The translations under genes were made by a program, and so were the position numbers. Below, one piece after another: positions 11,961-20,602 of a DNA stretch of 64,000 bases (positions are counted from its first letter, which is position 1; every line of letters starts with the position of its first letter). The notes below the pieces were generated by a model, which saw only the letters and a program-made list of their open reading frames with translations, did no database searches and had not been told where the DNA came from. Source of the DNA: Escherichia phage PSD2001; sequence record OK254198.1. One strand, 5' to 3'.

Positions 11961-12541
11961 TTACGGCATTCCTCAATAAAAGAATTTAATGTATTTTTCT
12001 TAGCGATATCGTCGTATACCTTTTTAACTTTAGAAATACGAAAAGGTACTTCAATAGCCATAGTCCATAAAAATGATGCAATAAGTCCAACAGCAGCAGA
12101 AGAAATGCACGCGCCCATTACAGCCACAGGTGCTTCATTTTTACCTGTCAAGAAAAACAACAGGATTGGTAAAAATAAGATTCCAGCCCACACATAAAAC
12201 CTGGAACAAATTAACTTATCAAATTCATCTTTCCAGGTACGAAATCCATATTTCTTGCTATAAGAAATTAATGGGTCGGGTGTCTGTTCTTTGAGTGGTT
12301 CCGGTTGATACCCATTAACAATATATCCCATTTTATATTCCTTAATTAAAAGCTCTTTCACATGACGATTGCATCGCGACCAATCAACGTTTTCCACCTT
12401 GATTCCTTCATCACCATCGTCAAGGTTCGCCCAATATTTTTTGGTAATCATAAATTCATCTCTTGATACAATTATACCTGCATTTTCTGCCCGACGGATG
12501 AAGTTTACATCAACACCCATACAACCAGGTTCATACAGCAT
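11957..12541 (-). CDS. Hypothetical membrane protein, C-terminal ...LNSFIEECRK tail family
   Basis: 194 aa; two C-proximal TM helices then basic tail shared with 15640..15993 and 15980..16339. Confidence 0.55.
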   Translation of the reverse strand: MLYEPGCMGVDVNFIRRAENAGIIVSRDEFMITKKYWANLDDGDEGIKVENVDWSRCNRHVKELLIKEYKMGYIVNGYQPEPLKEQTPDPLISYSKKYGFRTWKDEFDKLICSRFYVWAGILFLPILLFFLTGKNEAPVAVMGACISSAAVGLIASFLWTMAIEVPFRISKVKKVYDDIAKKNTLNSFIEECRK

Positions 12542-17965: not shown

Positions 17966-18409
17966 TTAAATTTCAAATTCTTTGCGGAAGTTGGAAGCAT
18001 AAGACTGAACTGATGCTTTGTTGAATCCAAACTCACGCACAATCATATCAATAACAGCTCTACGGGCAGCACCATTAGACATATTAACAGTTTTGAACAT
18101 ATCATAGCATAAATCTTTGTTGCTCATGCCGGAGCGTTTAGGTGCCTTACGTTCAGCTTTTGGTTCAGCTTTAGGAGTAGGTTTAACTTCTGGTTTAACC
18201 TGTCCATCATTCAGACCTTTAAAAATTTTACCTGCCAGCGTTGCCAGTTTAGCAGCTTCGCCACGAGTGATACCAAATACTGCCGGGTTAAATGAAATAC
18301 CTTCAGCTGTCAGACGTTTGAAGAACATACGTGCTGCGGATTGTGCTTCAGCTTCAGAAGAGTTGTTTAATGCCAGTTTAATGTACTTAACCAGTTTTGA
18401 AGTTTTCAT
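17966..18409 (-). CDS. Hypothetical protein, C-terminal 'AARRAVID...VQSYASNFRK' domain
   Basis: 147 aa; C-terminal ~40 aa shared with 18863..19288. Confidence 0.55.
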   Translation of the reverse strand: MKTSKLVKYIKLALNNSSEAEAQSAARMFFKRLTAEGISFNPAVFGITRGEAAKLATLAGKIFKGLNDGQVKPEVKPTPKAEPKAERKAPKRSGMSNKDLCYDMFKTVNMSNGAARRAVIDMIVREFGFNKASVQSYASNFRKEFEI

Positions 18410-18411
18410 TT

Positions 18412-18470
18412 TATTATCCCGTTTGTTTATTTGGTAACTCAGTATGGAATCATTATGTCTTAGTTAAATT
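18412..18470 (-). promoter_or_regulatory. PeSS-like early promoter (-35 GTGTAC, -10 CATAAT; left repeat arm absent)
   Basis: GTGTAC-18nt-CATAAT-GATTCCATACTGAGTTACC upstream of 17966..18409. Confidence 0.5.
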
Positions 18471-18482
18471 CCAAAGTACACA

Positions 18483-18779
18483 TTAATTTTCAGAAGTTGG
18501 GAAATAAACTTCAAAGTCATACATGTTTACTACCGCAGACGCGATTGCCTGGTACTGCATACCTAAGAAAGTTTTCTTATTCTTGCGCCACAAGTTAACC
18601 ATTTCTGTTTTGATGCATGCCAGGGAATAGTTGGATGCAGGATACTGTTTGATGATTGCAACAACTTCTTCAGAAGCAGTTTCGCACAATTCATTCAGTT
18701 GAGCTTCAATTTTAGCAGAAATGATTGCTTTGTTTTCTTTTTGAGCTTGGGTAGCGTGCCACGCAGGTGCGTTAAACAT
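18483..18779 (-). CDS. Hypothetical protein
   Basis: 98 aa; PeSS upstream. Confidence 0.5.
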   Translation of the reverse strand: MFNAPAWHATQAQKENKAIISAKIEAQLNELCETASEEVVAIIKQYPASNYSLACIKTEMVNLWRKNKKTFLGMQYQAIASAVVNMYDFEVYFPTSEN

Positions 18780-18789
18780 TTTTATTCTC

Positions 18790-18848
18790 CAGTGTTTTAT
18801 TTGTTAACTCAGTATGGGATAATTATACACTATCCCACCTGGAAGTAA
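18790..18848 (-). promoter_or_regulatory. PeSS-like early promoter (-10 TATAAT inside GGGATAG/TATCCC inverted repeat)
   Basis: Minus-strand read TTTACTTCC-AGGTGGGATAGTG-TATAAT-TATCCCATACTGAG. Confidence 0.55.
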
Positions 18849-18862
18849 AACACTTTTCTCAA

Positions 18863-19288
18863 TTATTTTTGAGCTTTGCGGAAGTTGGAAGCATATGACT
18901 GAACAACAGTCTTTTTGATATCATGGGTGTTAACCAGAACATCAATCAGAGCGCGGCGGGCAGCATTATCATTCATATCAATTTCTGCAAATGCCTGGAA
19001 GCAAATTTCACGAGCGTTACCAGATTTGGACTGGATTTTTTCTTCTTTAACTTCTTCAATTGGGAATTCAATCATTTCAGCTTTGATTAATTCAATGATG
19101 GATTCTTTTGACTGTTTGGTGTTTACCTTCAGTTCAGAATTAAGGGACTTAGCGATGGCAACAATCTGGGTTGAAGTCAGATGGATAAGTGCATCTTCAC
19201 GAATGCAGATTTCGCATACTTCGTCAGCAACCATTTTGTTGGTGATGCGGGTAACAGAGAATGCAGAGGTCAGGGTCAGAAAGTTCAT
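18863..19288 (-). CDS. Hypothetical protein, C-terminal 'AARRALID...VQSYASNFRK' domain
   Basis: 141 aa from internal ATG with SD GGAGAAA; paralogous C-terminus to 17966..18409. Confidence 0.55.
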   Translation of the reverse strand: MNFLTLTSAFSVTRITNKMVADEVCEICIREDALIHLTSTQIVAIAKSLNSELKVNTKQSKESIIELIKAEMIEFPIEEVKEEKIQSKSGNAREICFQAFAEIDMNDNAARRALIDVLVNTHDIKKTVVQSYASNFRKAQK

Positions 19289-19317
19289 TTTATTTCTCCA
19301 AAGTTTTGTTTGATTCA

Positions 19318-19372
19318 GTGTGTAACTCAGTATGGAATCATTATGCACCCGGTCAATTCGGATGTACACTAC
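19318..19372 (-). promoter_or_regulatory. PeSS-like early promoter (-35 GTGTACA, -10 CATAAT)
   Basis: GTAGTGTACA-...-CATAATGATTCCATACTGAGTTAC. Confidence 0.55.
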
Positions 19373-19404
19373 TTTTTGAAGAAAATTTCAAATTTATTCG
19401 GGGT

Positions 19405-19436
19405 ATAAAAAAGCCCCAACCTTTCGGGAGGGGCTA
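19405..19436 (-). terminator. Intrinsic terminator closing the tRNA-region transcript
   Basis: GC-rich hairpin AGCCCC...GGGGCT followed by T-run on minus strand. Confidence 0.6.
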
Positions 19437-19739
19437 TACCTTGTCGGGGTTCCACCTGCAAGGCAAGTGTTTGTACGAAACGCCGGGGTTCGAACCCGGT
19501 TATTAAGTAGTTGACGCTACCCAATATTTTTAAAAGGCCATATCTCGACCATATCCGAACGTTCCGTCAAAAACGCCACTCGGCTTACGGCAAAGATATT
19601 TCCTCGAATCGATAATTCGGTGCGCCGTTTCTGCTGTGATGTAAGGGGATATTAACAAATCGTAAAGATTTATTAAGACCAGTCCTTACGCAGGGAACAT
19701 CAGTCCGACGACTTACCGGTAGCGACCCGGTTTCTTGTT

Positions 19740-19815
19740 TGGTACCTCTAGAAGGACTCGAACCCTCACCTTTAACCTTAGAACGATTATATGCTATCCG
19801 TTACACTATAGAGGC
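19740..19815 (-). tRNA. tRNA-Arg (anticodon TCT), CCA encoded
   Basis: Manual fold: acceptor GCCTCTA/TAGAGGT (one G-U), D-arm, anticodon stem TAATC/GGTTA with loop GTTCTAA, T-arm GAGGG-TTCGAGT-CCTTC, then ACCA. Confidence 0.8.
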
Positions 19816-20466
19816 AATTAAATTATTTACAATATCATCTTTATAAACTTCGGCATAATGCAGTTCATAAATTTTCCAACCTGCGGCTTTTATGATATCA
19901 TGTCTTTCTTTATAATATGGGGCCAAAATCTTTTGTTTTGGATTGGAATAATGTTGATTTCCATTAACTTCAATAATTATTTTCTTATCTATTAAAGCAA
20001 TATCACAAGAATATGCTCGGTTTTCAACTGCCTGATATTCTTCGACAAATATAATACCAGCTTCAAGCAGTTTGGTTTTTAAAAATTCACACGGCACCGA
20101 TTTAAATTTAGTATTCTTTTTCCAAGGGTGTTTATCGGGATTTTCTTTTAACCATTTCTTTCTTCCATCAGAAATTCGTTTTATAGATTCGGGAGAGTGT
20201 TCTCTGCCTAGCGAAGCGACTGATAATTTTTCTCGAGTTTCCGCAGAAACGACAAACGGGACACCTGTCTTTTTAGCTACTACAAATTGATTTAAATTCC
20301 CAGATTCTATACGAGCTTTATTCATCGCAGCAACTGCAGTTTTAGAACCCTCTTTATAGGAATCTAACTTAGGGTTAGATGGACACCATCTTGTATGATT
20401 AGCCATCCAGCCTTTAGGCTTGTTAGAAGTATCAAATTCTTTATTACAATGTTTGCAGATGCTCAT
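19801..20466 (-). CDS. Putative homing endonuclease: N-terminal Zn-finger, NUMOD3-like motif, C-terminal Vsr-like (PD-(D/E)xK, DUF559-type) nuclease
   Basis: 221 aa; 'CKHCNKEF...HTRWC'; 'SAETREKLSVASLGREHSPESIKRIS'; C-term 'IIEVNGNQHY...ERHDIIKAAGWKIYEL'; lies between two tRNAs. Confidence 0.6.
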   Translation of the reverse strand: MSICKHCNKEFDTSNKPKGWMANHTRWCPSNPKLDSYKEGSKTAVAAMNKARIESGNLNQFVVAKKTGVPFVVSAETREKLSVASLGREHSPESIKRISDGRKKWLKENPDKHPWKKNTKFKSVPCEFLKTKLLEAGIIFVEEYQAVENRAYSCDIALIDKKIIIEVNGNQHYSNPKQKILAPYYKERHDIIKAAGWKIYELHYAEVYKDDIVNNLIASIV

Positions 20467-20492
20467 CAAAAATCTCCTATTAAGTATAGGAG

Positions 20493-20500
20493 TATTTATA
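20493..20500 (-). promoter_or_regulatory. Late-promoter TATAAATA upstream of the tRNA-region nuclease gene, followed by an SD-sequestering hairpin
   Basis: Minus strand TATAAATA-CTCCTATACTTAATAGGAG-ATTTTTG-ATG; SD AGGAG is in the 3' arm. Confidence 0.5.
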
Positions 20501-20527
20501 ATTGGACAGAGCACCATTCTAAAAATA

Positions 20528-20602
20528 TGACCCAGACCAGATTTGAACTGGTAACCTTTCCCTTATGAGGGGACTGCTGCTAACCAATTGAGCTACAGGG
20601 CC
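20528..20602 (-). tRNA. tRNA with anticodon CAT (Met or Ile2)
   Basis: Manual fold: acceptor GGCCCTG, anticodon loop CTCATAA, perfect T-arm ACCAG-TTCAAAT-CTGGT; one acceptor mismatch and a 3-bp D-stem. Confidence 0.7.

Follow-up and report, generated by a model that had tools for sequence, protein, structure and literature searches.

Orthologues of the T4 small stable RNAs rnaD and rnaC beside a phage tRNA gene: a tRNA-like junction in rnaC with a predicted kissing-loop contact

What occupies the roughly 300 nucleotides (nt) that separate a transfer RNA (tRNA) gene from a transcription terminator in Escherichia phage PSD2001? We addressed this question in a stretch of 64,000 nt from sequence record OK254198.1, referred to here as the window. 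An earlier note, made from the sequence alone, had placed the interval 19437-19739 between tRNA-Arg and the terminator and proposed that it might encode small stable RNAs like those of the tRNA cluster of phage T4, or else an unusual tRNA. The placement is exact: tRNA-Arg(UCU) borders the interval on one side and a strong intrinsic terminator on the other, and the terminator is on the minus strand, which is also the functional strand of the interval. The proposal of T4-like small RNAs proved right as well, since the interval is orthologous to T4 rnaD and rnaC. Even the suggestion of an unusual tRNA was borne out in part of the molecule, because rnaC contains a tRNA-like acceptor and T-arm module.

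The species 1 and species 2 RNAs of T4 have been on record since the 1970s. In the T4 RefSeq entry they are listed as misc_RNA features, rnaD ("small, stable RNA; species 2 RNA", 119 nt) and rnaC ("species 1 RNA", 139 nt), immediately 3' of tRNA-Arg and on the same strand. The window aligns with T4 base for base over both RNAs and for about 37 nt past the annotated rnaC 3' end. Via this alignment we transferred the ends annotated in T4, which places a 120-nt rnaD orthologue at 19738-19619 and a 139-nt rnaC orthologue at 19612-19474, both on the minus strand; by sequence comparison, the spacer GAAUUA (19618-19613, minus strand) separates them. Identity of rnaC is 97% to T4 and 96% to RB69, that of the adjoining 3' trailer 97% to either phage, and that of rnaD, over 120 nt, 87.5% and 95%, respectively. 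The neighboring tRNA-Arg reaches only 72% and 66%, and both small RNAs are thus under stronger constraint than this tRNA. These comparisons show orthology, synteny and strong purifying selection on rnaC and rnaD. The pair is already known, and its occurrence in a T-even-type genome is expected.

The interval is widespread but rarely labeled. BLAST found it in 806 phage records, nearly complete in 679 of them, and rnaC or rnaD is annotated in only a handful among the records listed, whereas many carry "hypothetical protein" coding sequences over the region and one GenBank record (MK327946) annotates part of rnaC as tRNA-Lys. In the RB69 RefSeq entry (NC_004928) both RNAs lie unannotated in a 430-nt gap, at 12157-12425 on the minus strand, where rnaC scores 163 bits. 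These omissions can be traced to Rfam, which has no family for either RNA. The earlier note had named covariance models as a check, with an empty result counting against stable RNAs. Rfam and ARAGORN indeed left the interval empty, but a custom rnaC covariance model (R1) scored the window copy at 162.3 bits. Rfam is silent because no family model has been built, and to take its silence as absence would have misled. On the interval, Rfam scans at the gathering threshold and, over 19300-19900, at E<=10 returned only tRNA-Arg and chance-level matches, which we discarded: NsiR1 fell on the terminator, isrK lay on the wrong strand and Plastid-ycf2 was antisense to the tRNA.

What kind of molecule is rnaC? 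We assembled 27 distinct homologues from a phage collection, IMG/VR and metagenomes, spanning Tequatrovirus-type, Karamvirus, Tegunavirus, Kanagawavirus and Marfavirus phages and an Erwinia phage. Run on 19 of these homologues without a supplied structure, RNAalifold returned a four-way junction with compensatory changes in 28 of 44 pairs. Its end is closed by an acceptor-like stem of 7 base pairs (bp), supported by covariation, in which CGAUUCG (19611-19605) faces CGUUUCG (19482-19476); these and all following rnaC positions are on the minus strand. At the position of the D-arm stands P2, a rod that is 71 nt long and built from five short helices (19604-19534), with double changes in 17 of the 24 pairs of helices 2-5 and with the apical loop UUGACG (19570-19565). 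An A-rich single-stranded linker leads from P2 to P3, a 10-bp hairpin at the position of the anticodon arm (19526-19501; helix 6, double changes in 8 of 10 pairs), with the 6-nt loop CGUCAA (19516-19511). One nucleotide after P3, the T-arm begins, CCGGG-UUCGAAC-CCCGG (19499-19483), with a 5-bp stem and a canonical 7-nt T-loop; its helix 7 is paired in 100% of cells and has 2 covarying pairs. The T-arm abuts the acceptor 3' strand exactly as in tRNA.

Two statements of the earlier note bear on this fold. The T-arm-like hairpin it had pointed out is real, although it sits one base away from where it was placed, at 19483-19499; the motif occurs once in the 64-kb window, with a chance expectation of 0.01. 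That this hairpin had no matching acceptor stem does not hold, for the partner strand lies about 120 nt upstream and the pairing has compensatory changes elsewhere. The stem is easily overlooked because of two U.U mismatches, which most lineages have at pairs 4 and 5. At pair 3, 7 sequences have A-U and 12 have G-C, and in the Yersinia-phage type, CGGUCCG/CGGACUG, all pairs are formed.

The consensus stands out clearly from controls. With the proposed partners, 93% of cells pair, compared with 38-45% when partners are slid by 1-3 columns, and changes on both sides occur in 28 of 46 pairs, compared with 5-9 in the slid controls; none of 500 shuffles reached the observed pairing values. The minimum free energy structure of the window sequence by itself equals the consensus fold (z = -2.92). 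Moreover, the P2 sequence is almost wholly replaced in the Klebsiella, Melville and fGh-Ecl01 types with pairing and length retained, and overall rnaC length differs by only about 3 nt among homologues. In this comparative model, covariation shows rnaC to have an acceptor-like stem of 7 bp that stacks on a canonical T-arm, with P2 and P3 replacing the D and anticodon arms. A competing pairing, in which the P2e 3' strand CGGAACG would be the partner of the acceptor 3' strand, was rejected, as it is absent in Yersinia- and Klebsiella-type sequences; it underlies a 96-nt "tRNA-Phe" call by ARAGORN on part of the rnaC of Erwinia phage COW86c.

Such calls raise the possibility that rnaC is a functional, if unusual, tRNA or a molecule resembling transfer-messenger RNA (tmRNA) that is aminoacylated and enters the ribosome. 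The canonical T-loop and the 7-bp acceptor-like stem would fit, and tRNA finders occasionally call part of rnaC as tRNA-Phe or tRNA-Lys. Also the 3' tail is suggestive. Where tRNA has N-CCA, window rnaC has U-ACAA (19475-19471); the tail reads U-ACA-A in the T4 type, U-UCA-A in the Yersinia type and U-CCA-A, a genuine tRNA-style 3' end, in the Klebsiella Marfavirus copies. Only tail position 74 varies, and C75 and A76 are invariant in all rnaC homologues. In most lineages, however, ACA or UCA takes the place of CCA. A 7-nt anticodon loop is missing, since the loop of P3 has 6 nt and would be paired to that of P2, and neither ARAGORN nor the Rfam tRNA and tmRNA models make a call on the window interval. 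Pair 3:70 is A-U or G-C and not the G.U required for tmRNA alanylation, and a tag reading frame is absent. We hence regard an aminoacylated, translating rnaC as very improbable; without an anticodon loop, and without CCA in most lineages, mature rnaC would not be aminoacylatable.

The two hairpin loops of rnaC are related to each other. The reverse complement of the P2 loop UUGACG is exactly the P3 loop, CGUCAA, and the two can pair in 114 of 114 cells. Only two loop positions vary, and in each of two lineages they changed jointly: the Yersinia type has UUGAUG/CAUCAA, the Klebsiella Marfavirus type UUGGCG/CGCCAA. To avoid bias, the search pattern used on IMG/VR and metagenomes left both variable positions free on either side. 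Every genuine match was nevertheless complementary, the combinations being UUGACG/CGUCAA, UUGAUG/CAUCAA and UUGGCG/CGCCAA only, and complementary loops are found in all 27 homologues. An all-against-all scan of single column pairs was uninformative, with 306 pairs appearing to covary, because the homologues fall into only about five clades; we replaced it by a scan at the level of helices. Among 5,985 six-column antiparallel stacks, just three were paired in at least 98% of cells: a nested P2 helix, the T-loop with 5' UUCGAG, which does not covary, and the P2/P3 loop pair. The last is the only non-nested stack of the 5,985 that is 100% Watson-Crick. As for the second, UUCGAG, which ends the acceptor 5' strand (alignment columns 6-11, about 19608-19603 in the window), is complementary to the palindromic T-loop segment UUCGAA (columns 123-128, about 19494-19489) in 98% of cells without covariation, which is probably a by-product of two conserved motifs.

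From this pattern of conservation and paired change, the P2 and P3 loops probably form a 6-bp kissing helix. If the contact is real, we lean toward an intramolecular rather than a dimer-forming arrangement. A rough length estimate gives about 70 Å for P2a-d and about 59 Å for P2e, kissing helix and P3 together; this supports an intramolecular, folded-back arrangement with the A-rich linker as a bridge, and the conserved length of rnaC fits such a geometric constraint. The kissing helix would thereby lock the non-tRNA half of rnaC into a folded-back domain. We did not find a loop-loop contact in rnaC mentioned in the literature covered, which does not include the sequencing papers of the 1970s.

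Might the interval instead hold decaying tRNA genes, non-functional remnants or short protein-coding genes? An acceptor and T-arm without an anticodon arm could be taken for decay, one of the two RNAs has been lost in some phages, and several records place "hypothetical protein" coding sequences over the region. Open reading frames (ORFs) of 34-81 amino acids (aa) can also be drawn in the window. The earlier note had reported no ORF of 60 aa or more, which is not quite correct: a mechanical 81-aa ORF on the plus strand (19261-19506) enters the interval by 70 nt, and further ORFs of 51, 42 and 34 aa overlap it. These frames are not credible, since all of them are broken by 1-nt indels among homologues and substitutions track RNA pairing, not codons. 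Decay is equally hard to reconcile with an rnaC that is better conserved than the functional tRNA-Arg (97% versus 72% identity to T4), with dozens of compensatory substitutions across genera, and with a P2 that changed in sequence but kept its length. Furthermore, the T4 products are RNAs, RNAC having been detected by Northern blot (PMC9697503). Taken together, we give hardly any weight to remnants or coding genes.

Where rnaC and rnaD occur speaks to whether they act as free RNAs. With the custom rnaC model each phage yields a single copy; the loci used to build the model score 129-166 bits and the more divergent copy of phage Melville 124.5 bits, whereas genuine tRNAs, although aligned end to end, reach 13-27 bits only. 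Covariance-model searches added rnaC in Mosigvirus (RB69) and Gelderlandvirus (Melville). With filters off, the model found no rnaC in Aeromonas phage 25, Acinetobacter phage Acj61 or Proteus phage SJ_PmiM, only tRNAs at <=19 bits, and a sequence pattern for rnaC had 0 matches in 185,579 bacterial and archaeal genomes. Among candidates discarded as chance matches were 11 of the 24 loci found in IMG/VR with a loose pattern of 5' motif and T-loop, which proved to be GC-rich coding sequence, and one metagenome match to the rnaC pattern. The range of rnaC is that of T-even-like phages of Enterobacterales.

Within this range the surroundings vary. In Karamvirus, Gelderlandvirus and Erwinia phage COW86c, rnaC sits tightly between tRNA-Trp and tRNA-Gly in a tRNA array; in a Yersinia phage it directly precedes tRNA-Trp, and Klebsiella Marfavirus Clarke_MM3 has it downstream of a tRNA-Met, at a distance of about 70 nt. 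The spacer upstream of rnaC is similar even in loci where tRNA-Trp replaces rnaD. Genera with rnaC among tRNAs, Karamvirus, Gelderlandvirus and others, have no rnaD. Conversely, JS98- and VR5-like phages have retained rnaD as well as trailer hairpin and terminator but lack precisely rnaC, so that ...GGCGCACCGA is joined directly to ACACUUGCC... at the junction. One further locus (L034) has unrelated sequence after rnaD. The separate presence and absence of rnaC and rnaD marks them as independent modules that are gained and lost much like tRNA genes.

This distribution bears on the idea that the two elements merely form a cis-acting 3' end of the tRNA operon, serving transcript protection, processing or termination, with no function as free RNAs. 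In T4-type phages and in the window they do lie distally, just before a conserved trailer and terminator. The 39-nt 3' trailer, CAAACACUUGCCUUGCAGGUGGAACCCCGACAAGGUAUA, which follows the mature rnaC end annotated in T4 and has a hairpin inside, occupies 19473-19435 on the minus strand; the intrinsic terminator follows as the hairpin GCCCCUCCC-GAAA-GGUUGGGGC (19434-19413) with a U6 tract (19412-19407), spanning 19434-19407 on the same strand. Trailer and terminator are conserved in every T4-type locus, and the trailer is so even in phages without rnaC, as a cis-acting end would predict. Against such a role, rnaC lies mid-array with tRNAs on both sides in Karamvirus, Gelderlandvirus and Erwinia phages, the T4 RNAs accumulate as discrete stable species (by annotation and by Northern blot, PMC9697503), and an elaborate fold with a covarying tertiary contact exceeds what protection from exonucleases needs. 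A purely cis-acting end is thus improbable. The trailer itself (ACACUUGCC..GCAGGUGGAACCCCGACAAGG) is almost invariant and allows two mutually exclusive hairpins; it may represent a processing site or an element in its own right, and maturation presumably removes it. In most relatives a mini-hairpin, UUGCCGCAAGGCUUA, precedes the terminator and a TATAAATA late promoter comes right after it; the window has neither.

The architecture of rnaD is different. An RNAalifold alignment of 22 distinct homologues shows an invariant 5' core, an invariant 3' core and, between them, a module of which there are at least three unrelated versions. The 5' hairpin, in the window ACCGG-GUCGCUA-CCGGU (19731-19715, minus strand), reads (A/G)CCGG-GUCGCUA-CCGG(U/C) across homologues, its closing pair covarying between A-U and G-C. 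It is followed by a long irregular stem, closed by GUCGUCG/CGGCGCAC and carrying a variable apical module, in which alignment columns 40-112 and 51-103 covary. The closing helix is invariant, and covariation hence gives no test of it; the fold of window rnaD has a modest thermodynamic signal (z = -2.26). The alignment shows that rnaD consists of a 5' hairpin and a long stem whose tip is exchangeable. We discarded a reading of rnaD as a tRNA-like RNA with a CCA end, because the T4 end ...ACCA is not conserved (ACCG in the window; ACAG, AAAG or ACCU in others) and there is no acceptor-type pairing. Within an otherwise invariant stretch, CCCUG-NN-UAAGG, the two nucleotides NN (about 19690-19689, minus strand) are hypervariable among close relatives, with CG in the window and AG, UU, GG or AA elsewhere, and covary partially with the opposite strand. 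This is not an anticodon loop: the consensus fold pairs the segment, partly covarying, with CCUUAC and leaves no 7-nt loop. Whole-length RNAduplex predictions of rnaD against rnaC were uninformative, as they ignore intramolecular structure.

Do the invariant loops of these RNAs serve to pair with other transcripts? RNAC and RNAD have been termed small regulatory RNAs "of yet unknown functions" (PMC9697503), and regulatory roles have been suggested for them elsewhere (PMC12685909). As base-pairing regulators they would contact host or phage mRNAs through their loops, possibly via Hfq or ProQ, and invariant single-stranded motifs, i.e., the rnaD loop GUCGCUA and the rnaC A-rich linker, could be the pairing sites. 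But the two best-conserved rnaC loops are complementary and change together, and are most simply occupied by each other. The 3' ends annotated in T4 lie upstream of the terminator, so the mature RNAs would lack an Hfq-type hairpin with U-tail, and no Rfam family of small regulatory RNAs rises above chance on the interval. We do not regard rnaC as a base-pairing regulator, and for the pair of RNAs we likewise find this explanation quite unlikely. All these alternatives accord less well with the mid-array placement, the compensatory substitutions, the mutually paired loops and the negative tRNA and tmRNA tests.

How, then, would rnaD and rnaC be made? In T4, transcription of the tRNA cluster yields a single precursor of about 1.75 kb, which contains species I and II RNAs and ends after the species I gene (PMC2330249), and RNA-seq classed RNAC and RNAD as late RNAs, with a Northern blot for RNAC (PMC9697503). 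Discrete stable rnaC and rnaD species are known for T4 only. In the window, tRNA-Arg (anticodon UCU, CCA encoded; 19740-19815, minus strand; found by ARAGORN and by Rfam RF00005 at 53.5 bits) lies upstream of rnaD, probably in the same transcription unit. The T4-type late-promoter consensus TATAAATA at 20500-20493, a sequence match only, precedes an endonuclease-like ORF, tRNA-Arg, rnaD and rnaC on the minus strand; a late transcript over both RNAs might begin here, which is consistent with their late class in T4 (PMC9697503). We consider it likely that rnaD and rnaC form the distal end of a phage tRNA operon on this strand. They would be co-transcribed with tRNA-Arg as far as the terminator, and the tRNA-maturation machinery would then excise rnaC, the acceptor and T-arm minihelix being the module recognized by RNase P. 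RNase P might cut at the rnaC 5' end, while endonuclease cleavage and exonuclease trimming of the trailer would generate its 3' end. The same 5' cut would create the 3' end of an rnaD precursor, to be trimmed back to the rnaD closing helix, and compact folds would confer metabolic stability on both RNAs. This combination of co-transcription, excision by tRNA enzymes and fold-based stability appears likely as well.

Less can be said about what the RNAs do. About 50 years after their description, we found no stated function for rnaC or rnaD in the literature covered. One clue comes from a T4-like phage evolved on E. coli ECOR34, in which all lines acquired an identical single-nucleotide polymorphism (SNP) in rnaD (2025; PMC12685909). 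Another is that both RNAs are kept in the window and in RB69 despite only two annotated tRNA genes each, compared with eight in T4. The SNP and this retention are no more than a hint at a host-dependent role. We may speculate that rnaC, by mimicking a tRNA, works in trans as a decoy or scaffold for a factor, of the host or of the phage, that recognizes acceptor and T-arm, with a host-dependent effect on fitness, although we hold this with little confidence. A more specific version, in which rnaC is a locked or head-to-tail oligomeric decoy or sponge for a host factor and rnaD a second, exchangeable host-range RNA, seems improbable; the target might be, for example, a tRNA-targeting anti-phage nuclease or transferase. 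A decoy or host-range function would fit the convergent rnaD SNP during ECOR34 adaptation.

Several points weigh against the picture of tRNA-like, enzymatically excised and trans-acting RNAs. In 17 of 19 sequences, two U.U mismatches interrupt the acceptor stem, and with about five homologue clades, shared ancestry inflates the covariation of single column pairs. The kissing contact depends on two independent double substitutions and on perfect conservation. Regarding processing, rnaC as annotated in T4 includes one base (U) ahead of the acceptor stem, unlike a canonical product of RNase P, and its 3' tail, UACAA and not RCCA, makes it less similar to an ideal RNase P substrate. Mature ends rest on the T4 annotation, and the expression evidence likewise comes from T4 and not from Escherichia phage PSD2001. 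Neither RNA can be essential, given the natural loss of rnaC in JS98- and VR5-like phages and of rnaD elsewhere. A covariation-supported rnaC fold with kissing loops, a defined phylogenetic range and natural single knock-outs provide starting points for experiments.

The neighborhood of the two RNAs shows further features. ARAGORN and Rfam agree on two tRNA genes in the window, tRNA-Arg and tRNA-Met(CAU) (20528-20602, minus strand), and nothing further appears at Rfam curated thresholds. Between them, at the position of T4 segB, lies an ORF of 238 aa (19801-20517, minus strand) whose Pfam matches are RAP (25.4 bits) and DUF559, both restriction-endonuclease-like domains, and not GIY-YIG; from these matches, it is possibly a homing-endonuclease-like mobile gene. 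Its stop codon lies 15 nt inside tRNA-Arg. Its true start is probably an internal Met at about 20466, because the late promoter (20500-20493) and a hairpin (20492-20474) fall within the first 15 codons. Downstream of the terminator, two minus-strand ORFs (17966-18409 and 18863-19288) share the C-terminal motif ...ARRA(V/L)ID...VQSYASNFRK and have no Pfam match. A near-identical repeat of about 25 nt, on the plus strand GT(A/T)AACTCAGTATGG(A/G)AT(C/A)ATTAT, precedes each of these two and the ORF between them (18483-18779), at 18429-18457, 18800-18830 and 19316-19350. The repeat holds a sigma-70-like promoter on the minus strand, e.g., TTGACC-16-CATACT at 19356-19329.

Compared with T4, the window preserves the order tRNA-Arg, rnaD, rnaC, trailer and terminator, and rnaC measures 139 nt in both, whereas rnaD has 119 nt in T4 and 120 nt in the window. 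Three substitutions distinguish the two rnaC copies, one in an internal loop, one turning A-U into G.U and one at a variable T-loop position, all of them neutral to the structure. The rnaD copies differ more, with unlike apical modules and with ...ACCA at the T4 3' end in place of ...ACCG. Furthermore, T4 has a mini-hairpin between trailer and terminator that the window lacks, segB upstream where the window has the RAP/DUF559-type ORF, and eight tRNA genes instead of two.

With canonical tRNA (RF00005), rnaC shares the 7-bp end stem, the adjoining 5-bp T-stem with a UUCGAAY T-loop and the four-way junction, as well as its location in tRNA arrays and, presumably, its excision by tRNA-processing enzymes. 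It departs from tRNA in its 71-nt rod in place of the D-arm, its 10-bp "anticodon" arm with a 6-nt loop, the A-rich linker of 7-10 nt in place of position 26 and the tandem U.U in the acceptor stem. Most lineages lack CCA, and tRNA models miss the molecule.

Other RNAs have put tRNA-like parts to different use. The tRNA-like domain of tmRNA is an acceptor and T-arm minihelix without an anticodon arm, set on a larger structured RNA. rnaC is built alike in this respect, yet it has no G3.U70, no tag ORF and no pseudoknot ring, and it is negative with ARAGORN in tmRNA mode and with Rfam. In murid herpesvirus 68, TMERs use tRNA-like modules as processing handles for viral non-coding RNAs. The shared idea would be a non-aminoacylated tRNA-like element that recruits host tRNA-processing enzymes to release and stabilize an attached non-tRNA domain, although host domain and enzymes differ, and the extra domain of rnaC sits within the tRNA-like frame and is not appended to it. 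ROOL and GOLLD resemble rnaC in being phage-borne, tRNA-adjacent and highly structured RNAs. Their Rfam models gave no match on 19300-19900 even at E<=10, and at 139 nt rnaC is far smaller. Recent cryo-electron microscopy reportedly shows that ROOL and GOLLD assemble via intermolecular loop contacts, and by analogy the complementary loop pair of rnaC could in principle mediate a similar assembly.

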